From NCBI RefSeq assembly GCF_056712565.1, contig NZ_CM160072.1: a stretch of 64,000 bases of DNA; one strand, 5' to 3'. Positions 2,341-48,679 of the stretch are shown piece after piece. Under the pieces are notes generated by a model. The model was not told the DNA's origin and made no database searches. It worked only from the letters and a program-made list of their open reading frames with translations. A program made the translations under genes and the position numbers. Every line of letters begins with the position of its first letter. Within the stretch, counting starts at the first letter, position 1.

Positions 2341-4563
2341 TTGGCTGTTCAATTCGCTTATCCGTGGAACGTCCCACGGTCGGCAATCTCCAGCCCATAC
2401 CTTACTTATGAGCAACAGCATCGCCGCGACCGTATGTTCGCGGCTTTGCTGCATGCAAAAAAGGTGCTTTCTCTCCAGCCCGACTGCGTGCGGTTAGATG
2501 TTTATCGCACTGCTGCGGTGCTGGAGCAAAATCAGGGTAGTCAACGAGCCAATGCATTTTTAATCAGCTTCTGCAAAAAGGCATTGCCGCGTCTTGAACT
2601 GGTCGCAAAAAAATACGAATGCGCTGGTATCAACAGCAAGGTATCAACCGCTGTTTTTGGAAGTCATTTTGATACTCAGCAAATGCAATATCTGTCGTCA
2701 CGCATGGTTAATATGGTCGCCCGATATAACCGTCTCCCGGACATGTCGCGCGCTGATGTTGACCTGTTGGCCGCTGATATTGCTAATTTCATTCGTGGTG
2801 AACTTGCCAACATTAATGACCACGGATTCGGCGAGCTTAAAACGCTGTACACCTGGTATATTCGTGCTGGCTTTATTTCCCTCCAATTCAACGTTATCCC
2901 ACCACATTGGGAGCGGGTTGAAAAAAAATATGTCGGTGCGGATGAAATCGCACCGGCTATCGCCAAAATGTTTAACGATGGGTGGTGGCGCGGTCGTTTG
3001 CGCCGTGTAGCAGCTACGTGGCGCGAACACCTGCAAATTGCAGTCGGCAACGTCAGTAAGAAAAAAAACACTTACGCGAGTAAAAACTGCGTGACTGACT
3101 GGCGTGAACAAAAGCGCCGCACTCGTGAATTTCTCAAAGGTCTGGATCTCGAAGACGAAGACGGCAACCGTATCAGCCTAATTGAAAAATATGATGGCTC
3201 AGTTGCTAACCCTGCGATTCGCCGCTGTGAGCTCATGACCCGCATTCGTGGGTTTGAAAACATCTGTAATGAGCTCGGTTATGTCGGTGAGTTTTACACT
3301 CTAACCGCGCCGTCAAAATATCACGCCACGACTAAAGCCGGTTACCGTAACAGCAAATGGAGCGGTGCCAGCCCGGCTGACACGCAAAACTATCTAACCG
3401 GTATCTGGGCGCGTATCCGTGCCAAACTACATCGGGAAGATGTCCGTATTTTCGGTATTCGTGTCGCCGAGCCCCATCACGACGGCACTCCACACTGGCA
3501 CATGCTGATGTTCATGCTGCCGGAAGATGTTGAATATGTTCGCTCCATCGTCCGTAAATACGCATGGAAAGAAGACCGCCACGAACTGAAAAGCGATAAA
3601 TCCAAAAAAGCACGTTTCCACGCGGAGTCCATTGACCCGGAGAAAGGCAGCGCAACCGGCTATGTTGCTAAATACATTTCAAAAAATATCGACGGTTATG
3701 CTCTCGATGGTGAAACCGATGATGAAAGCGGTGAGCTGCTGAAAGAGACAGCCCCCGCCGTTTCAGCATGGGCTGCGCGCTGGCACATCCGTCAGTTTCA
3801 GTTTATTGGTGGTGCGCCGGTGACGGTTTACCGTGAGTTGCGTCGCCTCGCTGATACCGAAACCGCGCACGGTCTGAGCGTTGAGTTTGCCGCCGTCCAT
3901 GATGCCGCCGACGCTGGTGACTGGGCTGGTTATGTTAATGCTCAGGGTGGGCCGTTTGTCCGTCGCGATGATTTACAGGTGCGCACACTGTATGAACCGC
4001 GTACCGAGCTTAATCAGTACGGTGAGGAAACGGTATGTATTAAGGGGGTCTACGATTCCTCCATAGGTGCAGGAAGCCCGATTTTAACCCGGCTCACTCA
4101 GTGGAAGATTGTTCCGAAGCGTGCTGTTGATTTGCCCGTTGACCTTCAGGACGGCAAAGCCGTCCCTCGGAGTTCTGTCAATAACTGTACGGGAAGCGAA
4201 AGCGATCCACCGATACTGGATTTAACAAAACCACTGAGTCGGCGTGAAAGACGAGAATTGACCAACCGACTCAGGAAGCAAAAGCCAGCAGCACGGCGAA
4301 AATTCATCCACGGAACGGATGAGCAAAACGCAGCTATAGCTAAAACTATCGATGAGATACATCTGACAACCGGCATTAATATCAGCCGGGGCGAAGCCCT
4401 GCACCTGATGGCCGGTGGTAAAAGTTGTTTTGATGGTAAATGGCTACGCGGAACGGCCAAAGGAGAAATATTTTCCGCAGCACCATCGCATGAGGCTAAA
4501 GCTCGGAAAATCCTTAATCGTGTTGCGGCGATGGCTGAAGCATTAAAACCAATACATGAGTAA
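2341..4563 (+). CDS. A: replication initiation endonuclease (P2 gpA family, rolling-circle initiator)
   Basis: 740-aa ORF (TTG start in track; true start may be downstream ATG); motifs PHWHMLMF and YVAKYISKN (active-site Tyr region) as in gpA. Confidence 0.8.
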   Translation: MAVQFAYPWNVPRSAISSPYLTYEQQHRRDRMFAALLHAKKVLSLQPDCVRLDVYRTAAVLEQNQGSQRANAFLISFCKKALPRLELVAKKYECAGINSKVSTAVFGSHFDTQQMQYLSSRMVNMVARYNRLPDMSRADVDLLAADIANFIRGELANINDHGFGELKTLYTWYIRAGFISLQFNVIPPHWERVEKKYVGADEIAPAIAKMFNDGWWRGRLRRVAATWREHLQIAVGNVSKKKNTYASKNCVTDWREQKRRTREFLKGLDLEDEDGNRISLIEKYDGSVANPAIRRCELMTRIRGFENICNELGYVGEFYTLTAPSKYHATTKAGYRNSKWSGASPADTQNYLTGIWARIRAKLHREDVRIFGIRVAEPHHDGTPHWHMLMFMLPEDVEYVRSIVRKYAWKEDRHELKSDKSKKARFHAESIDPEKGSATGYVAKYISKNIDGYALDGETDDESGELLKETAPAVSAWAARWHIRQFQFIGGAPVTVYRELRRLADTETAHGLSVEFAAVHDAADAGDWAGYVNAQGGPFVRRDDLQVRTLYEPRTELNQYGEETVCIKGVYDSSIGAGSPILTRLTQWKIVPKRAVDLPVDLQDGKAVPRSSVNNCTGSESDPPILDLTKPLSRRERRELTNRLRKQKPAARRKFIHGTDEQNAAIAKTIDEIHLTTGINISRGEALHLMAGGKSCFDGKWLRGTAKGEIFSAAPSHEAKARKILNRVAAMAEALKPIHE

Positions 4564-4637
4564 TTCATATCCATATCATGCACATACAGCAATCGCTCTA
4601 TTCGTTTTTTTTCTTCCCATCTTTTGCCAATACGTGC

Positions 4638-11058: not shown

Positions 11059-11913
11059 ATGGCAAAAAAAGTCTCAAAATTCTTTCGCATCGGCGTCGAG
11101 GGTGACACCTGCGACGGCCGCATTATCAGCGGCAACGATATTCAGGAAATGGCCGAATCGTTTGACCCTCGCGTCTACGGTTGCCGCATTAACCTTGAGC
11201 ATATTCGCGGTCTCTTTCCTGATGGCGACTTCAAACGCTTAGGCGATGTGGTTGAACTGAAAGCTGAAATAATTGACGACGATTCTGCGCTTAACGGCAA
11301 ATGGGCGTTGTTCGCCAGAATCACCCCAACCGACGACCTGATTGCGATGAATAAAAAATTGCAGAAGGTCTACACCTCAATGGAAATTCAGCCGAATTTT
11401 GCCAATACCGGCAAATGCTACCTCGTCGGCCTTGCTGTCACCGATGACCCGGCGAGCCTCGGCACTGAATACCTCGAATTCTGCCGCAACGCGAAGCACA
11501 ACCCTCTGCAGCGCTTTAAGGCCAACCCTGAAAACGTCTTTTCCGCTGCCACGCTGGCCGAACTGGAATTTGAAGACGTTCCCGATACGGTGCTAAACAG
11601 CCTGGCAGATAAGGTTAAAGCCATTTTCAGCCGTAAGCAGGTCAGCGACGATGCGCGCCTGAATGATGTGCATGAAGCGGTGACCACCGTCAGCGAGCAT
11701 GTGCAGACCAACCTCACTGCGCAGGATAAGCGTCTTTCCGCTATGGAAGCCGCGCTTACCACCTTTAAACAGGAACTGACCGGCAAGATTGAAGAAACCA
11801 GCCAGGCATTTTCCGCCCTGAAAGCCACCCTCGACAAAACCGAAAGTTTCAGCCAGCCGCGACGCACGAAAGCCAGCGGCGGTGGTGGCGATGAGCTGCT
11901 GACCGACTGCTGA
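11059..11913 (+). CDS. O: capsid scaffolding protein (P2 gpO family)
   Basis: 284 aa, same length as P2 O; first gene of rightward capsid operon. Confidence 0.8.
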   Translation: MAKKVSKFFRIGVEGDTCDGRIISGNDIQEMAESFDPRVYGCRINLEHIRGLFPDGDFKRLGDVVELKAEIIDDDSALNGKWALFARITPTDDLIAMNKKLQKVYTSMEIQPNFANTGKCYLVGLAVTDDPASLGTEYLEFCRNAKHNPLQRFKANPENVFSAATLAELEFEDVPDTVLNSLADKVKAIFSRKQVSDDARLNDVHEAVTTVSEHVQTNLTAQDKRLSAMEAALTTFKQELTGKIEETSQAFSALKATLDKTESFSQPRRTKASGGGGDELLTDC

Positions 11914-11989
11914 TAAACCGCAGACCAGAAACCGGGCGGTAACTCCGCCCGATGCAGTGACTAACCGATAAATTCAAACAGGAAATACT

Positions 11990-13057
11990 ATGCGCCCGGA
12001 AACCCGTTTTAAGTTCAATGCCTATCTGACCCGCGTCGCTGAGCTGAACGGCATCAGCACTGATGACGTCAGTAAAAAATTCACCGTCGAGCCGTCCGTC
12101 ACGCAAACGCTGATGAACAAAGTGCAGGAGTCATCCGCGTTTCTGCAGACGATTAACATTCTGCCGGTCGCAGAAATGAAGGGTGAGAAAATCGGCGTCG
12201 CTGTGACCGGTACTATCGCCAGCACGACCGACACCTCGGGCGATGATGAGCGTAAGACCGCAGACTTCACCGCGCTTGAGTCCAACAAGTACGAGTGCGA
12301 CCAGATTAACTTTGACTTCCATCTGAAATATAAAACCCTCGACCTGTGGGCGCGTTTTCAGGACTTTCAGCGCCGCATCCGTGACGCCATTGTTAAGCGT
12401 CAGGCGCTCGATTTCATCATGGCCGGTTTTAACGGTACCACCCGCGCCGCCACCTCTGACCGCACCAAAAATCCGATGCTGCAGGATGTAGCCGTCGGCT
12501 GGCTGCAGAAATACCGCAACGAAGCCCCGACGCGTGTGATGAGCAATATCACCGATGCTGACGGTAAGGTCGTTTCGGCAGTGATTCGCGTCGGTAAAAA
12601 CGGCGACTATGAGAACCTCGACGCGCTGGTGATGGATGCTACCAACAACCTGATTGACGAGGTTTATCAGGATGACCCGAAACTCGTTGCCATCGTTGGC
12701 CGTAAGCTGCTGGCCGACAAATATTTCCCGCTGGTGAACAAGCCGCAAGAAAACAGCGAAGCGCTCGCGGCAGATATCATCATCAGCCAGAAGCGAATCG
12801 GCAACCTGCCTGCTGTGCGTGTGCCGTACTTCCCGGCGAATGCCGTGTTAGTGACAACGCTGGAAAACCTCTCTATCTATTTCATGGATGAGAGCCACCG
12901 CCGCAGCATTGATGAAAACCCGAAAAAAGACCGCGTGGAAAACTACGAGTCAATGAATATCGACTATGTGGTCGAGGCGTATGCCGCCGGGTGTCTGCTG
13001 GAAAACATCACCCTAGGCGATTTCACCGCACCTGCAGCACCGGAAAGCGGAGAGTAA
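11990..13057 (+). CDS. N: major capsid protein (P2 gpN family)
   Basis: 355 aa, order O-N-M-L. Confidence 0.8.
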   Translation: MRPETRFKFNAYLTRVAELNGISTDDVSKKFTVEPSVTQTLMNKVQESSAFLQTINILPVAEMKGEKIGVAVTGTIASTTDTSGDDERKTADFTALESNKYECDQINFDFHLKYKTLDLWARFQDFQRRIRDAIVKRQALDFIMAGFNGTTRAATSDRTKNPMLQDVAVGWLQKYRNEAPTRVMSNITDADGKVVSAVIRVGKNGDYENLDALVMDATNNLIDEVYQDDPKLVAIVGRKLLADKYFPLVNKPQENSEALAADIIISQKRIGNLPAVRVPYFPANAVLVTTLENLSIYFMDESHRRSIDENPKKDRVENYESMNIDYVVEAYAAGCLLENITLGDFTAPAAPESGE

Positions 13058-39864: not shown

Positions 39865-40347
39865 ATGACGAAGAAAAAAGCACATAAACCTGGTTCAGCG
39901 ACCATCGCGCTTAACAAGCGCGCCCGTCACGAATACTTTATCGAAGAAGAGTTCGAAGCGGGACTTGCCCTGCAAGGCTGGGAGGTTAAATCCCTGCGCG
40001 CAGGAAAAGCCAATATCAGCGACAGCTATGTCCTTCTGCGCGACGGAGAGGCATTTCTGTTTGGCGCTAACATCACGCCAATGGCTGTGGCCTCCACGCA
40101 TGTGGTGTGCGATCCTACCCGTACCCGCAAGTTACTTCTCAACCAGCGCGAACTGGACTCATTGTACGGTCGCGTCAATCGAGAAGGCTATACCGTAGTG
40201 GCGCTCTCCCTGTACTGGAAAAATGCCTGGTGCAAAGTGAAAATCGGCGTCGCCAAAGGTAAGAAACAGCACGATAAACGTTCAGATATCAAAGAACGCG
40301 AATGGCAGGTGGATAAAGCGCGTATCATGAAAAATGCCCACCGTTAA
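39865..40347 (+). CDS. smpB: SsrA-binding protein SmpB
   Basis: 160 aa [34 protein letters not shown]... recognised as SmpB. Confidence 0.9.
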
Positions 40348-40561: not shown

Positions 40562-40924
40562 GGGGCTGATTCTGGATTCGACGGGATTTGCGAAACCCAA
40601 GGTGCATGCCGAGGGGCGGTTGGCCTCGTAAAAAGCCGCAAAAAATAGTCGCAAACGACGAAAACTACGCTTTAGCAGCTTAATAACCTGCTTAGAGCCC
40701 TCTCTCCCTAGCCTCCGCTCTTAGGACGGGGATCAAGAGAGGTCAAACCCAAAAGAGATCGCGTGGAAGCCCTGCCTGGGGTTGAAGCGTTAAAACTTAA
40801 TCAGGCTAGTTTGTTAGTGGCGTGTCCGTCCGCAGCTGGCAAGCGAATGTAAAGACTGACTAAGCATGTAGTACCGAGGATGTAGGAATTTCGGACGCGG
40901 GTTCAACTCCCGCCAGCTCCACCA
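40562..40924 (+). ncRNA. ssrA: tmRNA (transfer-messenger RNA)
   Basis: Starts GGGGCTGATTCTGGATTCGACGGG, contains tag ORF region (GCAAACGACGAAAACTACGCTTTAGCAGCTTAA), ends GGGTTCAACTCCCGCCAGCTCCACCA; 363 nt. Confidence 0.9.
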
Positions 40925-41052
40925 ATCATGATTGGACGGTGTAAGGACAACACCAACAAAAACAGGAAGTTAGAAGTCTCAGCAGGACACCGACCAGACG
41001 GTGAGGAGACATAAAAGGATACGCAAAGGAGCCGCGGCTCCGAAGTGAAATG

Positions 41053-41077
41053 AAAGCCCGCTGATGCGGGCTTTTTT
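41053..41077 (+). terminator. intrinsic terminator downstream of ssrA
   Basis: AGCCCGC-tgat-GCGGGCT followed by TTTTTT. Confidence 0.55.
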
Positions 41078-41356
41078 GCTTCTTCTCTTTAGCCTGATTC
41101 GACACTCTCAATGCGGCCATAAACAACAACCCACTTTTCTTATACCGTAGCCTGTCCCCCTCTTCCTGCTTTCTAACCATAACAGATGTGAGCGTTTGCT
41201 ATGAGCGATATATAGTCATTCGTACCCTCCGATACTAATCATCACAGAAATTAATATATTCATTCCTTACTGAAAAGCTATGAAGTAGATATATAGGATT
41301 GGGGCGCGTATGGCACTGGACAGTTATGCATCTCCGAATATTATTCCGGAGCTAAG

Positions 41357-41361
41357 ACAAC
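41357..41361. repeat. IS2 target-site duplication, left copy (ACAAC)
   Basis: 5 bp ACAAC immediately left of IS2 terminus; identical copy at 42693-42697. Confidence 0.7.
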
Positions 41362-41452
41362 TAGACTGGCCCCCTGAATCTCCAGACAACCAATATCACT
41401 TATTTAAGTGATAGTCTTAATACTAGTTTTTAGACTAGTCATTGGAGAGCAG

Positions 41453-41818
41453 ATGATTGATGTCTTAGGACCGGAGAAACGCAGACGGCGTACCACACAG
41501 GAAAAGATCGCAATTGTTCAGCAGAGCTTTGAACCAGGGATGACGGTCTCCCTCGTTGCCCGGCAACATGGTGTAGCAGCCAGCCAGTTATTTCTCTGGC
41601 GTAAGCAATACCAGGAAGGAAGTCTTACTGCTGTCGCCGCCGGAGAACAGGTTGTTCCTGCCTCTGAACTTGCTGCCGCCATGAAGCAGATTAAAGAACT
41701 CCAGCGCCTGCTCGGCAAGAAAACGATGGAAAATGAACTCCTCAAAGAAGCCGTTGAATATGGACGGGCAAAAAAGTGGATAGCGCACGCGCCCTTATTG
41801 CCCGGGGATGGGGAGTAA
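41453..41818 (+). CDS. insC: IS2 OrfA (InsC, HTH transposase part)
   Basis: [56 protein letters not shown]... Confidence 0.85.
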
Positions 41819-42681
41819 GCTTAGTCAGCCGTTGTCTCCGGGTGTCGCGTGCGCAGTTGCACGTCATTCTCAGACGAACCGATGACTGGATGGATGGCCG
41901 CCGCAGTCGTCACACTGATGATACGGATGTGCTTCTCCGTATACACCATGTTATCGGAGAGCTGCCCACGTATGGTTATCGTCGGGTATGGGCGCTGCTT
42001 CGCAGACAGGCAGAACTTGATGGTATGCCTGCGATCAATGCCAAACGTGTTTACCGGATCATGCGCCAGAATGCGCTGTTGCTTGAGCGAAAACCTGCTG
42101 TACCGCCATCGAAACGGGCACATACAGGCAGAGTGGCTGTGAAAGAAAGTAATCAGCGATGGTGCTCTGACGGGTTCGAGTTCCGCTGTGATAACGGAGA
42201 AAAACTGCGAGTCACGTTCGCGCTGGACTGCTGTGACCGTGAGGCACTGCACTGGGCGGTCACTACGGGCGGCTTCAACAGTGAAACAGTACAGGACGTC
42301 ATGCTGGGAGCGGTGGAACGCCGCTTCGGCAACGAGCTTCCGGCGTCTCCAGTAGAGTGGCTGACGGATAATGGTTCATGCTACCGGGCTAATGAAACAC
42401 GGCAGTTTGCCCGGATGTTGGGGCTTGAACCGAAGAGCACGGCGGTGCGGAGTCCGGAGAGTAACGGCATAGCAGAGAGCTTCGTGAAAACGATAAAGCG
42501 TGACTACATCAGTGTCATGCCCAAACCAGACGGGTTAACGGCAGCAAAGAACCTTGCAGAGGCGTTCGAGCATTATAACGAATGGCATCCGCATAGTGCA
42601 CTGGGTTATCGCTCGCCACGGGAATATCTACGGCAGCAAGCCAGTAATGGGTTAAGTGATAACAGGTGTCTGGAAATATAG
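41776..42681 (+). CDS. insD: IS2 OrfB (InsD, DDE transposase catalytic part)
   Basis: 301 aa overlapping orfA in -1 frame, typical IS3-family arrangement. Confidence 0.85.
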
Positions 42682-42692
42682 GGGCAAATCCA

Positions 42693-42697
42693 ACAAC
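42693..42697. repeat. IS2 target-site duplication, right copy (ACAAC)
   Basis: See left copy. Confidence 0.7.
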
Positions 42698-42839
42698 CGA
42701 ATGCCGCAGCAGGTAAGATCACGCTAGGGGGGCTGGACAGAATGGCTGTTACGCCCAGTGTGAAGAAAAGAAGGCTAAGTATGGTAGAATTTCCATACGC
42801 ACAGACCTTGTTATCCGACTATACAGCCTGGAAGGCACT

Positions 42840-43628
42840 ATGACAAATCTACAACTGGAAGAAAGATTTAGGGCGCTTGAGAAAGATTACGATGCGCTCA
42901 TTTCCACAAAATATACTGCGCAGAACGTTCTCACTCACACTATGGAAACCTATGTTGATTCTGGTAAATATAAAAACTGGATCGCCAGAGTGAAAAAGTT
43001 AATAGAGGACAGCTACGGAAAAGAGTCTGATTATTACAATGACTTCAATACTGTAAACAGCAGGTGGTCTTCTAATTACAATACACTGATCAAAAGTTAT
43101 AAACCGTTGTTTGATGCGGCGAGAGATGATCTTGCGCACTCTGCTGTCAGTACTAATACTCCTCAAGAAGGTTCGCCGCTGAGCCTCGTACTTAATATTC
43201 TTAACAGGTTTCCGACCTTTGTTCGCCAGTTAAAGAGGCGGTACAACGGCCGTGCGCCGCTTGAAGTTAATGATGAGTATGACGTACAGGATTTGATTTA
43301 TGCACTGCTGACGCTTCATTTTAATGATATTAGGGCGGAAGAGTATACCCCCAGCTTTGCGGGCGCGGCCTCAAGACAGGACTTTCTTTTGAAAAAAGAG
43401 AAAATTGTGATAGAGGTGAAGAAAACCCGTGAATCTCTGGGAGCGGGTAAAGTTGGTGGAGAGTTGCTTATTGATATGGCGCGCTACCGCGCTCACCAAG
43501 ACTGCGATACGTTGATCTTGTTTGTATATGACCCGGATTGCTACATAAATAATCCTTTGGGCGTGAAAACCGATCTGGAATCTAAAGACGCGGAAGGAAA
43601 AGTGAAGGTTGTTATTGCGCAGTTCTGA
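42840..43628 (+). CDS. hypothetical protein with putative PD-(D/E)xK nuclease core in C-terminal half
   Basis: 262 aa; candidate motifs E-YDVQDLIYALL, RQDFLL and IVIEVKK (D...ExK); helical N-terminal half; motif-level call only. Confidence 0.55.
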   Translation: MTNLQLEERFRALEKDYDALISTKYTAQNVLTHTMETYVDSGKYKNWIARVKKLIEDSYGKESDYYNDFNTVNSRWSSNYNTLIKSYKPLFDAARDDLAHSAVSTNTPQEGSPLSLVLNILNRFPTFVRQLKRRYNGRAPLEVNDEYDVQDLIYALLTLHFNDIRAEEYTPSFAGAASRQDFLLKKEKIVIEVKKTRESLGAGKVGGELLIDMARYRAHQDCDTLILFVYDPDCYINNPLGVKTDLESKDAEGKVKVVIAQF

Positions 43629-43715
43629 CACGCTTAAGTGTCACCTTACAGGATTAGGTTTGCGGCCGTGCCAGCAGGACGAGCATGAAAAAGGCCGCTG
43701 GCACGGCCGGATTTG

Positions 43716-44009
43716 TCATCTTTGCCAGGTCAAATCAAAATCTACGTGAAAATCCGCAGGCTTAAGCTCGCAACTGCCACCACGCCCAATTAACGACGTT
43801 ATGTTTACAACGTTTGAACCTGTTGAGATGGCAAGTTGAGTGTCATCTGTAAACGTGATGATTAGCATTTCAGTCTGATGAACCTGTACTCCAGTTTTCT
43901 GAAAACCAATCTGGACAGATTTCACCGTTTTCCCAACCATTTCACGGGCTTGATTGATAGAGTAATTAGCTTCAACTTGTAGGTCATTCCTGAACTTGGG
44001 TAGTGTCAT
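43716..44009 (-). CDS. hypothetical small protein (97 aa), downstream of GIY-YIG gene on same strand
   Basis: ORF convergent with 42840-43628; 12-bp inverted repeat GGCCGTGCCAGC/GCTGGCACGGCC at 43664-43708 between them. Confidence 0.45.
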   Translation of the reverse strand: MTLPKFRNDLQVEANYSINQAREMVGKTVKSVQIGFQKTGVQVHQTEMLIITFTDDTQLAISTGSNVVNITSLIGRGGSCELKPADFHVDFDLTWQR

Positions 44010-44219
44010 TTTACATCCTCTTTAGTGAAGTTTTCGCTATTTAAATCAGCAGCATTCCTTTTAAATCACTGGCATGTCAGCAGTGGATAGTCTGAGTGTA
44101 ACGTCCAGTGAGGGGAATAAATATTGGTCAGACTTTGCACAAAAGAGCCAACTATCGCGGGCTCTCTCTCATCATGTGCGAAAATTGACCACAATATGAA
44201 ATCCAGTTCCATTCCGAAA

Positions 44220-45044
<825 letters not shown>

Positions 45045-45140
45045 TCAATTGACAACTTATAATCCCTACTAGTTAGCATTATGATTTCCAGAGTGAGGAA
45101 TATAAAAATCTCTGTTTCTGGCACATAACAGCCCTTAAGA

Positions 45141-45200
45141 TCGTAGCTCGCCATCATGGGGTGTCGGGGGGCGGAGGTTCAAATCCTCTCGTGCCGACCA
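45141..45200 (+). other. tRNA-Pro 3' fragment (about 60 nt, anticodon-stem to CCA end), att-like remnant, not a complete tRNA
   Basis: catggggtgtcggggggcggaggttcaaatcctctcgtgccgacca matches recalled proL 3' 46 nt with one mismatch; 5' acceptor/D-arm region diverged. Confidence 0.6.
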
Positions 45201-45213
45201 AAAATCCCTTAAG

Positions 45214-45241
45214 AACCAGCCTATTATGGCTGGTTTTTTTA
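45214..45241 (+). terminator. intrinsic terminator following the tRNA-Pro fragment
   Basis: AACCAGCC-tattat-GGCTGGTT followed by TTTTTTT. Confidence 0.6.
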
Positions 45242-45441
45242 TGATTGTTTTTTATGCGGAGAAATACCGGGGAATAATTGGGGTAAAACACCTTTAGGCT
45301 ATTCACTTAGCCTACCACCATCAAAATCTTTCCGAATGTATCCATCTCTTTTTTCTTATGCAGCTAAAACGAAGTCTTGATACTGTTTATTTACACAGAT
45401 AAGAATAATACTGTCTACAAACGCAGTACAAAAGAAGTGTT

Positions 45442-45620
45442 ATGCGTATTGAGATCTCCATAGCCAAAGACAAAATGACCAAATGCCAAACGGCGCTGTG
45501 GACGCGTTAAAGGAAGAATTAACCCAACACATTGGCAAGCGTTATGACGATGTGGAGATGATCGTAAAAGCCACCAGCAACGATAGTTTTTCAGTTAGAC
45601 ATACTGCAGATAAAGATTGA
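45442..45620 (+). pseudogene. DinI-like small gene with apparent frameshift (two overlapping short frames)
   Basis: [14 protein letters not shown] (frame 1, stop 45508-45510) continues in another frame as [37 protein letters not shown]; resembles DinI N-terminus from memory. Confidence 0.35.
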
Positions 45621-46044
45621 GCTAAAACTTTCGTTCAGGAAACTCTGAATGATACCTGAGAGTCTACTGAAGAGTTGTTTGTTCACTAGTTAGCACGTAG
45701 GAAATCATTCAATACTCGCACTATCGGAAGTTCACCAGCCAGTCGTAGCACGTCCTTGCAAACGACGTGCCTACGGTTTCAATCACCTCTCACCATCAAT
45801 TCTATCAATAATAATTAAACAGCGCCTAGACAAAATAAATAACAACAAGTCAACAACCTCGACAGGATGCCGATGGGATGATGAAGAGATAAGAAAGAAT
45901 AACCAGTAAAGCCCTAAAACGTCAGCGTTCAGACGCGTTTTTTACTTAATCGGTAACAAATACGTTGTATCATAGCAAAATAAAATGATTGTTCTAAATC
46001 AGATTAACTCCTCACTTTTGTACAATGTCGCTTACAGGTATACC

Positions 46045-47934
46045 ATGAAATCCGAGACGCTAACTGTCCAACAACTTTTTCAAGACCGCCGACAATACTG
46101 TGTTCCATTCTATCAACGTGCCTATGTATGGACTCAGCAAGACCAGTGGTCAGCTCTACTGGAGGATATCCTAGAGAAAGTACAATCCCGGCTCTCGGGT
46201 ACAAAACCAACTCCCCATTTCCTTGGTGCGGTTGTACTGGAACCTCAATCAAAAAAAGGATTATTAGGTGTAGATTCCATACATATTATTGATGGTCAGC
46301 AACGATTGACCACTCTTCAATATGTTCTGGCATCCATCCGATTAGCATTACGTGCTACGGATCTTTCCAGCTTAGAGGCTCTCATTTCGCCTTGCCTGAA
46401 AAACTCAAACGAAGACACAATGCGAAATAAAGAAGTAGAACGCTTCAAACTGTGGCCAACTTTTCGGGATCAAACTCATTTTATTCAAAGTTTTAATGTT
46501 GAAAATATTGACGATCTCCGGGACGTATTCTCTGATAGTTTCACGCAGCATGGTACGTTGCGTAAGCATTTTAATCACCCGCCATCACTAGAAGCATTAT
46601 GTTTTTTTACTGAAGCCTTTATAAAATGGATTAAAATAGAAAACCACTCACCACAAGAAAATGCTGTAGCTCTAATTGAGGCTGTCTTAACAGATCTGAA
46701 ACTGGTAAGCATATTTCTCGAAGCTGAAGATGATGCCCAAATAATTTTTGAAACATTAAATGGGCGAGGGGCGGAACTTCATGCTACGGATCTTATTCGC
46801 AACTATATCTTTATGTGCGCTGAGCATGAAAATATTAATGCTATTGAATTATATGAAAATGAGTGGAAGAGCTTTGAAGATAAATACTGGTCGGAAAAAC
46901 AACGCCGTGGACGTATTAATAAACCACGCATGGAGTGGCTAGTACATGCGACATTGCAATCAGAAAGGCAACGTGAAATTGATCTGTCTCGCCTTTACAA
47001 TGAGTATCGTGATTATGTAAGTAAGGACTTGTCTTCACAACGAGCAGATCTGCAAGTAAAGCGCCTCAAACAATATGCATCACAATATAAAGAATTGGTT
47101 GATGGTTTTGGCACAACCCCCATCTCACACTTTGGATATCGCATCGCAGACTATGATGTGACGACACTTTATCCGCTTGCTTTGTTCATTTCGATAGCTA
47201 ACATCGCTGATGATGAGAAAGCAGCCATGTATAATGATCTTGTCTCCTACGTAGTACGAAGAGCCGTATGTGGCCTGACGCCAAAGAATTACAACAATGT
47301 ATTTATGAATGTATTGCGGCACTTGGCTAAAACGGAAATTTCCAGTGTTGAGTTACGTAATATCCTCAATAACTTAAATGGCGAAGCCTCACGTTGGCCT
47401 GGTGACTCAGAATTTCTCAACGCTTGCATCAATGCTCCACTTTATCCTGGCAGGCTCGACGCACCGAAAATGCGCTCAATGTTAACGGAACTTGAAAGAG
47501 AACTTTGTCGCCAAGTAAAGACAGAAAAGCCTGATGTTCCAAATCTTTCTAATCTCGATATCGATCATCTTATGCCTCAAAGTTGGTATTCCTGTTGGCC
47601 TCTCGAAAATGGTCGTATGGTGACAAATTCAGATGCTACGGTATTGAACCAAATTGTTCTGTCTGGAACCGATCTTACCCCTGAACAGCTACTGGTAAGG
47701 AAACGGCAACAAGCGATATCTACTTTGGGAAATCTAACTTTGCTTAACCTTAGCGTAAACCGTTCTGTTCAGAATGCTGTATTTCTGAAAAAACGTGATG
47801 CTCTCATCGTCCACACCAATCTACGACTGAACATTCCACTTATAGTTAAGGATAAATGGGATGAGGATGAAATCCTGGAGCGGGGTAAAAAGTTGGGGGA
47901 AATTGCATTGAAAGTATGGCCAAAACACGATTAA
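46045..47934 (+). CDS. GmrSD-family type IV (modification-dependent) restriction endonuclease-like protein (DUF262 + DUF1524/HNH)
   Basis: N-terminal YCVPFYQRAYVW and DGQQR (DUF262/ParB-like); C-terminal DIDHLMPQSW (His-Me/HNH-like); start taken at ATG 46045. Confidence 0.7.
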   Translation: MKSETLTVQQLFQDRRQYCVPFYQRAYVWTQQDQWSALLEDILEKVQSRLSGTKPTPHFLGAVVLEPQSKKGLLGVDSIHIIDGQQRLTTLQYVLASIRLALRATDLSSLEALISPCLKNSNEDTMRNKEVERFKLWPTFRDQTHFIQSFNVENIDDLRDVFSDSFTQHGTLRKHFNHPPSLEALCFFTEAFIKWIKIENHSPQENAVALIEAVLTDLKLVSIFLEAEDDAQIIFETLNGRGAELHATDLIRNYIFMCAEHENINAIELYENEWKSFEDKYWSEKQRRGRINKPRMEWLVHATLQSERQREIDLSRLYNEYRDYVSKDLSSQRADLQVKRLKQYASQYKELVDGFGTTPISHFGYRIADYDVTTLYPLALFISIANIADDEKAAMYNDLVSYVVRRAVCGLTPKNYNNVFMNVLRHLAKTEISSVELRNILNNLNGEASRWPGDSEFLNACINAPLYPGRLDAPKMRSMLTELERELCRQVKTEKPDVPNLSNLDIDHLMPQSWYSCWPLENGRMVTNSDATVLNQIVLSGTDLTPEQLLVRKRQQAISTLGNLTLLNLSVNRSVQNAVFLKKRDALIVHTNLRLNIPLIVKDKWDEDEILERGKKLGEIALKVWPKHD

Positions 47935-48029
47935 TGCAATTAATAAAATGATTATAGTGGCCTTACATTAGTAAGGCCGCTACTCACTATTAAATACTTT
48001 AATTTGCATCAAGAACAGCAGTGTCAGCC

Positions 48030-48158
48030 CTAGGTCTCGGACTTTGTACCGCTTATCTTGTCTTCAAAAATCAGCTCGCATCCTGCACAGTTCAGCGCAT
48101 TACGTTGTAGATCTGTGTTCTGGTCATTTGTTGACACACGTACATAGCCAATAAGCAT
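48030..48158 (-). pseudogene. pin: truncated serine DNA invertase gene (Pin/Gin family), N-terminal 42 codons only
   Basis: MLIGYVRVSTNDQNTDLQRNALNCAGCELIFEDKISGTKSET then TAG; matches recalled Pin/Gin N-terminus incl. catalytic Ser region; RBS GGGAGA upstream. Confidence 0.7.
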
Positions 48159-48184
48159 GGTAGATCTCCCTGACAAAAGCAGGA

Positions 48185-48679
48185 ATGATGCCATTTGCTC
48201 GTTATTTCTGCATTTTCATAAACGTTGGTTTGGGAGAAGGCTCTGCATTACCTGTTGGTGTGCCTGTTCCATGGCCTTCAGCCACACCGCCAACAGGCTG
48301 GCTGAAATGCAACGGTGCGGCTTTTTCTGCTGAAGAATACCCGGAACTGGCAAAGGCTTATCCGACAAATAAATTGCCTGATTTACGTGGTGAGTTTATT
48401 CGTGGCTGGGATGATGGGCGCGGCGTTGATTCAAGGCGTGCGGTGCTGTCAACACAAGAGCCAACTGTAGGTACTTTTTATGTGGAGCTAGCTATCATCT
48501 CGGGAACTTTGAGCGGCTCAGGTGCTAAATTTACCGATTCAGTAGGGATTGGATCAACCAGTAGTAACATTACCGTTAGCAACGGTAATGACCAGTCCGT
48601 GTCGGGTACAGTGGCCGTTAACCCCGTCGATACCCGTCCACGCAACATTGCATTTAACTATATCGTGAGAGCAGCATAA
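48185..48679 (+). CDS. silent alternative tail-fibre C-terminal (variable) segment inside invertible region
   Basis: PSATPPTGWLKCNGAAF...TRPRNIAFNYIVRAA shared with P2-family H C-terminus (21280-21730); no own N-terminal domain. Confidence 0.6.
   Translation: MMPFARYFCIFINVGLGEGSALPVGVPVPWPSATPPTGWLKCNGAAFSAEEYPELAKAYPTNKLPDLRGEFIRGWDDGRGVDSRRAVLSTQEPTVGTFYVELAIISGTLSGSGAKFTDSVGIGSTSSNITVSNGNDQSVSGTVAVNPVDTRPRNIAFNYIVRAA
48213..48238. repeat. gix-like inversion crossover site (left boundary of invertible tail-fibre segment)
   Basis: TTTTCATAAACG-TT-GGTTTGGGAGAA; 15-bp core TTGGTTTGGGAGAAG is exact inverted repeat of 50139-50153; half-site resembles Gin/Pin site TTATCCAAAACC. Confidence 0.55.

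Follow-up and report, generated by a model that had tools for sequence, protein, structure and literature searches.

A probable former proL attachment site inside a prophage at ssrA in Escherichia coli, apparently left by a swap of integration modules

Several things that bear on this locus are established already: tRNA 3' fragments as footprints of attachment sites, mosaicism of integrase modules, proL as an integration site, and the ssrA-integrating phage phiNP. K. Williams (NAR, 2002) reportedly described sublocation classes for tRNA-targeting integrases, among them one whose identity block begins in the anticodon loop and extends to the tRNA 3' end. In the lambda-type attP of a tRNA-targeting phage, the identity block runs from the anticodon loop through CCA, and direct repeats are found in the P' arm. 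On integration, the tRNA is rebuilt with a 3' part and a terminator that come from the phage. The tRNA-Pro piece described here is like such sites in all of these respects. Insertions at proL, the tRNA-Pro gene between yejM and yejO, are known in E. coli and Shigella, and include prophages reported in STEC O121 (PMC8767318) and a gtrIC-bearing prophage remnant described from S. flexneri 1c (PMC4924310). These share their target gene with our piece, which, however, is not at proL and borders no element. The S. flexneri element also has a CP4-57-type integrase adjoining the tRNA, which is a different integrase family in a different orientation. Phage phiNP is reported to use the 25-bp 3' end of ssrA as its integration site (PMC6456863), and E. 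coli phage LLS is organized like it. Orphan tRNA fragments are also seen in islands built by tandem accretion, in which a 3' fragment marks the boundary of modules of different origin. Our piece does likewise, but it comes from a tRNA other than the occupied one, there is no internal ssrA repeat, and what it appears to mark is a module exchange within one phage genome, not the successive insertion of two elements at a single site.

The piece lies in a window of 64,000 nucleotides, by which we mean the whole stretch of DNA analysed (contig NZ_CM160072.1 of assembly GCF_056712565.1). The window is 100% identical to the B2 E. coli strains S88, UTI89, IHE3034, UM146, NU14 and ATCC 11775; for S88, the 100% identity covers 40880–41361 and 42693–45300. 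Between these two segments is an IS2 on the plus strand (41362–42693; 97.7% over 1332 nt to an annotated IS2 in another of the loci compared, L002). It is missing from S88 and falls in the cargo zone, outside the tRNA-Pro piece, and the 5-bp overlap of its flanks implies a target duplication. Upstream of the piece are smpB (39865–40347) and, 4.2 kb away, the tmRNA gene ssrA (40562–40924, plus strand; called by ARAGORN and by Rfam at 295.8 bits). The last 25 nt of ssrA (40900–40924) are the attachment core, here the attL of the resident prophage, and are the same 25-mer as in the attP and attB of phiNP. The flank 3' of ssrA (40925–41085, plus strand, with a terminator at about 41054–41077) is homologous both to the P' side of the LLS attP and to a repeat at the far end of the prophage. 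The first of these matches is 90.6% over 192 nt (window 40886–41077 against the LLS 'tmRNA pseudogene/attP' region), and the second is 90.4% over 188 nt (E = 2e-70; S88 locus L004, 29471–29652, beside glaH).

The far end of the prophage is beyond the window and was read in S88 instead. There, genes for lysis, Q, replication and the repressor come next, then yfdPQR, and after them the integrase. Beyond the integrase are three opposite-strand genes, an ssrA 3' fragment (GGGTTCAACTCCCGCCAGC, without TCCAC), about 170 nt homologous to the ssrA flank, and then glaH. The attR in S88 accordingly has 19 nt of the core, with TCCAC missing, and the 170-nt homologous flank, while the attL core is complete at 25/25. 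Since these ssrA-derived repeats bracket the whole stretch, it is one element, and the tRNA-Pro piece is internal to it. The resident integrase is 91% identical to the Int of Citrobacter phage phiNP and 86% identical to that of LLS. LLS, a free phage, has the order xis, int, one gene, a site annotated by its depositors as 'tmRNA pseudogene / attP', several genes, a DinI-like gene, the Fin invertase and tail fibres. The window prophage shares with phiNP and LLS the order xis, int, cargo, attP, cargo, DinI, invertase and tail fibres, besides the integrase, the 25-bp core and the attP flank. The LLS gene order and the attP homology mean that the 4.2 kb from ssrA to the piece is a variable cargo zone and not a separate island. 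Tandem elements would be marked by a copy of the ssrA repeat where the cargo zone meets the prophage, but none was found there within 3 mismatches. By sequence, then, the element bearing the piece is a phiNP/LLS-like prophage integrated at ssrA. An earlier note, made from the letters of this DNA alone, had set the piece in an island; that context has to be revised to a prophage that a phiNP-type integrase placed at ssrA. What phiNP and LLS do not have is the tRNA-Pro core, which is present in the window prophage and in one other ssrA-resident prophage considered below.

Besides the IS2, the cargo zone holds a PD-(D/E)XK-type nuclease on the plus strand (42840–43628; so annotated by RefSeq in S88, and matched by PADLOC to the Aga_Helical-REase nuclease domain at E = 1e-26), a small ORF, and PD-T4-3, an anti-phage defence protein of the LEM-3-like GIY-YIG nuclease type (44220–44993, minus strand; RefSeq, and PADLOC at full length with E = 7e-137). 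PD-T4-3 is immediately left of the piece. To the right, the first backbone gene is a DinI-like pseudogene (45442–45659, plus strand; RefSeq annotation and sequence), with an SOS box, CTGT-N8-ACAG, ahead of it at 45383–45398. DinI occupies the corresponding position in phages Eeyore, Flotzy, LLS and phiNP. Next come another cargo gene, a DUF262/GmrSD-type type IV methyl-directed restriction enzyme (46045–47934, plus strand; PADLOC mREase_IV, 1415 bits, full length), and the remnant of a tail-fibre DNA invertase (48036–48158, minus strand; RefSeq; 79% to the LLS Fin invertase gene). Phage tail and head genes follow as far as the window end. Defence genes are therefore found on both flanks of the piece, PD-T4-3 and the nuclease on one side and the type IV restriction enzyme on the other.

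The earlier note had described the piece as about 60 nt of the 3' part of a tRNA-Pro, with a diverged 5' region and 46/47 identity over the last 47 nt including CCA. This description stands when the proL of S88, a genome with a 100% identical relic, is used as the alignment reference (L012, 2085–2161). Window 45143–45200 (GTAGCTCGCCATCATGGGGTGTCGGGGGGCGGAGGTTCAAATCCTCTCGTGCCGACCA) agrees with E. coli proL nt 20–77 at 54/58 positions, and the tRNA-derived extent is about 58 nt. Within it, 45154–45200 corresponds to tRNA nt 31–77, from the anticodon loop to the CCA at 45198–45200. The sole mismatch in these 47 nt is T48->G in the variable loop. The adjoining 45143–45153 matches tRNA nt 20–30 at 8/11, and tRNA nt 1–19 have no significant match in the window (6/19 ungapped; local alignment p = 0.17–0.3). 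The piece lacks both things expected of a functional tRNA-Pro gene, namely a cloverleaf called by the tools and an intact acceptor 5' strand, D arm and anticodon-stem 5' strand. ARAGORN called zero tRNAs in the window, and Rfam at its gathering threshold found none either, the tmRNA being its sole match. In a permissive Rfam scan of 45050–45300, the tRNA model was outcompeted by an 11-bit match of the tmRNA clan, and no tRNA was kept. So there is no complete, foldable tRNA here, and the similarity to the real proL is clear. It is far beyond chance, because a blastn search of complete E. coli genomes matches the proL locus to window 45143–45242 in 5425/5426 of them, at 86–89% across the tRNA part and terminator.

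Other readings of these nucleotides were tried and rejected. A complete but diverged tRNA, with GGCACATAACAGCC at 45120 as acceptor and D-arm 5' strand, scores p = 0.17 against random 50-mers for the window and p = 0.014 for the homologous arm in the viral contig L013, and is at most a possible vestige. The string GGCACA occurs as well in a PD-T4-3 module that has no tRNA piece. For an sRNA or riboswitch, the permissive Rfam scan yielded only sub-threshold, terminator-driven matches.

The part of the piece that we take for the core of a former proL attP is 45154–45208 on the plus strand, consisting of tRNA-Pro nt 31–77 plus AAAATCCC. It has the T48->G allele of many phage-borne copies. This G-variant core is present in 10 IMG/VR contigs and in Gifsy-2, whose copy is a shorter relic near sseI, and it is therefore a phage allele rather than decay.

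The core is followed by the strong terminator that the earlier note had reported, which is better regarded as the phage homologue of the proL terminator than as a separate feature. Its hairpin (45211–45238) has an 11-bp stem with 5 G-C pairs and a 6-nt loop, at a dG of -17.7 kcal/mol, and a T7 run extends the intrinsic terminator to 45245 (45211–45245, plus strand). The stem reads CCAGCC/GGCTGG in the relic and CCAACC/GGTTGG at native proL, which is a compensatory change, and the stem is preserved in all alleles, although the relic and native terminators are only about 76% identical. Such a change is to be expected if the rebuilt tRNA gene depends on the phage copy for its termination. Near-identity up to CCA, then about 76% identity with a compensatory change in the terminator, is the pattern of a phage copy and not of a chromosomal duplicate. 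Having a G+C-rich hairpin, a T-run and pairing kept across homologues, this is a predicted rho-independent terminator. The 9-bp direct repeat CCCTTAAGA noticed earlier on either side of the piece is present, but at coordinates 1–2 nt away from those first given (45132–45140 and 45206–45214). The 64-kb window has 54 repeats of >=9 nt within 100 nt, a density of about 0.1 per 100 nt. We rejected this one as a target duplication or microhomology since its frequency is at chance level and it cannot be extended; its second copy is 8/9 in the closest relative, and it is uninformative.

The nearest counterparts of the piece are sites that appear to be in working order. The free phages Eeyore and Flotzy have a block CATGGGG...CCGACCAAAA with the CCAGCC/GGCTGG terminator, exactly 137 nt 3' of the integrase stop. 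After this tRNA-Pro block come UmuD-like, DinI, invertase and tail-fibre genes, and the relic likewise stands ahead of DinI, invertase and tail-fibre genes. The integrase of Eeyore and Flotzy is 77% identical to that of a prophage resident at proL in strain VTB97022v. From the attP identity and this integrase relationship, we infer that the block is a working attP and that these phages integrate at proL. A literature search for Eeyore and Flotzy returned nothing. In VTB97022v itself, an intact proL, as the attL, is followed by DNA 98.6–98.9% identical to window 45143–48239, including the DinI pseudogene, the restriction enzyme and the invertase remnant. For the 140 nt 3' of CCA, the window is 99% identical to the VTB attL versus about 60% to the native proL flank. 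The VTB97022v element ends at a second tRNA-Pro-like site, the attR, beside yejO, with the integrase two genes away. A sibling prophage is found at proL in VTB97022v and >100 other genomes. As a side observation, RefSeq labels the attR pseudo-tRNA of the sibling prophage as a tRNA-Pro gene.

Downstream of the terminator, the window has the repeats GGAGAA, GGGGAA and GGGGTA (45258–45285, plus strand; starts at 45258, 45269 and 45280) at 11-nt spacing, the first copy being degenerate. The array GGGG(A/T/G)A at +102, +113 and +124 is conserved in seven other alleles, including Eeyore, Flotzy, the VTB attL, Gifsy-2, and the viral contigs L013 and L018. These P' repeats are probably arm-type binding sites of the integrase, to judge by their spacing and conservation. 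A further arm-type motif is at -132 of the P arm in Eeyore, Flotzy and the VTB attR, and is missing from the left arm in the window. The functional sites have one P-arm motif and three P'-arm motifs, and the window has the P' set only.

With these sites as the standard, the relic has the identity block from the crossover region in the anticodon loop to the tRNA 3' end, and a P' arm with repeats. The left edge of the identity block is the same in the relic, Eeyore, Flotzy and the VTB attR. Unlike a working attP, however, the relic has no adjacent cognate integrase, its left neighbour being PD-T4-3. It has no P arm (about 140 nt) with the -132 arm-type motif, its first P' repeat is degenerate, and its prophage is at ssrA. 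The earlier note had advised looking for an integrase and a partner att copy. The only integrase of the same prophage, as read in S88, is phiNP-type and unrelated to the Eeyore/VTB type (E = 0.057; E = 0.027). As to a partner, no second proL core exists in the window or at the far end of the S88 prophage. The tRNA-Pro piece thus has no partner direct repeat at the element's other end, as an attL or attR boundary should. The proL locus of S88 (yejM, proL, yejO pseudogene, narP) is intact and unoccupied. Taking the fragment for the footprint of an insertion was therefore right as far as its derivation from an attP goes, but it is not the attL or attR of an insertion at this place.

We consider it quite probable that window 45143–45285 is a fossil attP for proL, comprising the core, the phage-borne terminator and the P' arm, that stayed behind at the right-hand breakpoint when integration modules were swapped. 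Both breakpoints can be located by comparing siblings. The prophages of the S88/window type and the VTB type share 97.8% identity across yfdP, yfdQ and yfdR, and their similarity stops at the yfdR end. From window 45143 rightward, identity is back to 98.6–98.9%. Between the breakpoints, the VTB phage has a hypothetical gene, a possible xis, the proL integrase, two cargo genes and the P arm. The S88/window phage has a hypothetical gene, xis, the ssrA integrase, three cargo genes, the ssrA attP, cargo and a short left arm. The backbone common to the siblings includes a Mu-like contractile tail, an HK97-type head, yfdPQR, DinI, an invertase and tail-fibre genes. On our reading, these would be two forms of one phage that differ only in the integration module, located between yfdR and dinI. 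The first form would have the Eeyore/VTB-type integrase and the proL attP. The second, in the window, would have xis, the phiNP-type integrase, cargo, the ssrA attP and more cargo, and would for that reason sit at ssrA. The swap would have removed the former integrase and P arm, while the former core and P' arm stayed at the right-hand breakpoint. It may have come about by illegitimate replacement, or by integration at a secondary site followed by homologous deletion. The suggestion of the earlier note that the piece marks a module junction or a former att site of a proL-targeting element is thereby borne out: the core and P' arm are as in Eeyore, Flotzy and VTB97022v, and they stand at the right-hand breakpoint of the swap.

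Since there is neither an integrase nor a P arm, the relic is unable to assemble a normal integrative complex, and it is presumably now inert as an attP. It may still act as a terminator and as a passive, conserved right-hand border of the variable zone of defence genes. Core and terminator are undecayed, but the relic is the same in all of the about 112 genomes that carry it, and as these are close relatives, this says little on selection.

The left arm of the relic (45108–45152, plus strand) is a short unit without arm-type repeats that is common to the IMG/VR contigs L013, L017 and L015 (copy 1), with a different left-hand gene in each. It may be a decayed tRNA 5' half, as suggested by local alignment of the L013 arm (p = 0.014), although the value for the window alone (p = 0.17) is not significant. 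It is unrelated to the P arms of Eeyore, Flotzy and VTB, and that the left arm of the relic matches the P arm of no functional proL attP found is a point against reading the relic as a fossil attP. Contig L018 is a second, independent ssrA-resident prophage, with the tmRNA, one AbiTii cargo gene, a proL-type core and P' arm, DinI, and a fragment of an ssrA-type integrase; a tblastn search of this locus for a proL-type integrase found none. The L018 relic is closest to the Eeyore/Flotzy allele (75% to Eeyore), the window relic is 99% identical to VTB, and the two are 69% identical to each other. In both of these independent lineages the junction is exactly at the core edge. In the contigs L015, L016 and L019, the core, terminator and P' repeats are present twice, in direct orientation, on either side of one cargo ORF. 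The core-edge junctions and the tandem copies as in L015 hint that site-specific, not only illegitimate, recombination shaped the junctions.

These same observations are what commends a different reading, namely that the relic is still active as an attB- or attL-like landing pad in the ssrA-type phages, at which proL-type integrases of co-infecting relatives or mini-elements would time and again renew the DNA on its right or capture defence-gene cassettes and other cargo on its left. Nothing is missing from the core, which has the sequence of a widespread phage allele. The two ssrA prophages with a core-edge junction are each nearest to a different functional attP allele, the tandem copies bracket a single cargo ORF, and defence genes cluster on either side of the relic. 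However, an intact P-core-P' site, which would be the intermediate here and is likewise expected of secondary-site integration, is found in 0/5426 complete E. coli genomes. Essentially every genome that has the left arm also has the junction unbroken (113 vs 112). At the proL of S88, the relic-bearing genome inspected for this, there is no integrase of the proL type. Homologous recombination through the conserved flanks would account equally well for the turnover of cargo. We regard an active landing pad as unlikely.

More doubtful still is that the relic is an attL-type scar, formed when a whole proL-type phage integrated at a secondary site in an ssrA prophage and homologous recombination between the two co-linear genomes afterwards removed one genome-equivalent, with which the proL integrase and the attR-type junction were lost. 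Such a course of events would account for the breakpoint being at the crossover region and would explain the missing integrase and partner site, and sibling backbones that are 98–99% identical would make the deletion easy. Moreover, the 10 nt left of the breakpoint are tRNA-like, as a pseudo-attB half-site should be: window 45143–45152 matches tRNA nt 20–29 at 8/10, whereas the P arms of Eeyore and the VTB attR, counted by eye, reach 5–6/10. On the other hand, the empty site was not found. In the PD-T4-3 module of contig L006, homology to the window stops at 45126, and no core-like sequence is there. The exact junction of the left arm with the core has no match in IMG/VR or in the GTDB representative genomes, and no tandem intermediate was found among the 5426 E. 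coli genomes. Members of the left-arm family are also seen in other settings, as one would sooner expect of an inherited unit. We would give this account little credence.

Finally, a decaying duplicate of proL, that is, a tRNA pseudogene, or a rearranged attR-type 3' end of proL would share the high identity to proL and a downstream terminator homologous to the native one, but it is hardly credible when the flank after CCA is 99% identical to the phage side (attL) and only about 60–76% to the native proL flank, T48->G is common to phage-borne copies, P'-arm repeats and phage genes follow with phage or cargo DNA as both neighbours, and the element sits between ssrA and glaH as an insertion in place should, while proL is intact.

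A fossil attP left by a module swap, the reading we prefer, makes the piece a hitherto unannotated example of an established type of feature, an ordinary scar of module swapping between related phages, and these findings leave current understanding unchallenged. Such scars can mislead predictors of att sites and island boundaries, as well as tRNA annotation. If the site were in truth still recombinogenic, it would be a route for the exchange of cargo between phages. The locus serves as a worked example of temperate phages changing their chromosomal address: the siblings are 98–99% identical, one module is different, both breakpoints are mapped, and the scar has been kept. That scar marks the edge of a variable zone with anti-phage defence genes, and the main value of the finding is this well-resolved swap and its link to a hotspot of defence genes.

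A proline tRNA attachment-site sequence like the relic at window 45143-45285 also occurs in another prophage integrated at ssrA, the tmRNA gene. An independent ssrA-resident prophage on an IMG/VR contig (IMGVR_UViG_2888676325_000003; L018, 573-2525) has, in order, the tmRNA gene, a single AbiTii gene, a proL-type core that begins right at the AbiTii stop codon, a terminator, three GGGGAA repeats of the P' arm kind and DinI. A fragment of an ssrA-type integrase lies at 11818-12198 of the contig. E. coli S88, a close relative sharing the relic, has an extra P2-like prophage at ssrA ahead of the relic-bearing one (L001 1-10254, compared with the window at 40925), with cI, an integrase, a gpA pseudogene and a DinI-like gene of its own, so that the ssrA-targeting prophages there form a tandem pair. 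By this comparison with S88, the P2-like prophage is absent from ssrA in the window's strain.

The far-end attR of the relic-bearing prophage, which lies outside the window, was read in S88 (L004 29480-29505). Its ssrA core is without TCCAC, leaving 19 nt of the 25-bp core of phage phiNP, and this truncation might impair excision. In phiNP itself (L023 1-240), the ssrA-type attP flank closes with a terminator (CCAGCC...GGGCTGG and a T7 run), and the DinI gene follows immediately. That terminator is closer to the proL-type P' terminator than to the ssrA-type terminator of the window and phage LLS, and it may be a vestige of ancestry shared with the proL-type site, or a coincidence.

A shorter tRNA-Pro relic is present in the Salmonella prophage Gifsy-2 (L011 1507-1585; NC_010393.1 44256-44334), between sseI and the prophage's right end. 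Like the window relic, it has the T-to-G allele, the terminator and the GGGGAA repeats, but TGTCGGG is missing. Gifsy-2 is not known to use proL. In contigs L014 and L021 the near-identical site (93%) has a complete core. On IMG/VR contig L015 (oriented, 3290-4620), the site is present in two direct copies 1172 nt apart, each with the tRNA-Pro core, the terminator and part of the P' arm, and between them lies just one ORF of 261 aa. The left arm of the first copy is of the window type, and its acceptor 3' strand shows a C-to-T change. This looks like a cargo cassette with att copies at both flanks. Two direct tRNA-Pro copies also surround one ORF in contigs L016 and L019.

In strain VTB97022v, where a sibling prophage resides at proL, the attR (L005 30092-30169) is a hybrid of the phage P arm and the 3' part of proL. 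The RefSeq (PGAP) annotation of many genomes gives this hybrid as a 78-nt tRNA-Pro gene, while ARAGORN makes no tRNA call on it; it is probably a pseudo-tRNA entered as a second proL gene.

Downstream of the relic, a DinI-like gene (45442-45659) with a frameshift and an internal stop is preceded by an SOS box (CTGT-N8-ACAG, 45383-45398) that overlaps a promoter-like site. The same pseudogene is found in the proL-resident sibling, so the DinI defect is older than the exchange of integration modules between the siblings.

The cargo zone downstream of ssrA contains an IS2 copy (41362-42693; 97.7% to annotated IS2) with no counterpart in S88. Its flanks overlap by 5 bp, implying a target duplication, and the ORFs at 41408-41818 and 41776-42681 are IS2 transposase genes, not island genes.

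Anti-phage defence genes lie on both sides of the relic. To the left (42840-44993) are a GIY-YIG protein, PD-T4-3 (E = 7e-137), and a PD-(D/E)XK nuclease; to the right (46045-47934), a type IV methyl-directed restriction enzyme is matched over its full length (1415 bits). Strain CFSAN061769 has a PD-T4-3 homologue (L006 6889-7825; 89% DNA identity) whose setting differs: its context is lambdoid, with replication genes on one side and Q on the other. The homology ends at window position 45126, inside the relic's left arm (45108-45152), so a few bases of the arm travel along with the PD-T4-3 cassette. AbiTii in L018 occupies the position equivalent to the window's defence genes, and the part of this phage backbone next to the att site behaves as a hotspot for defence genes.
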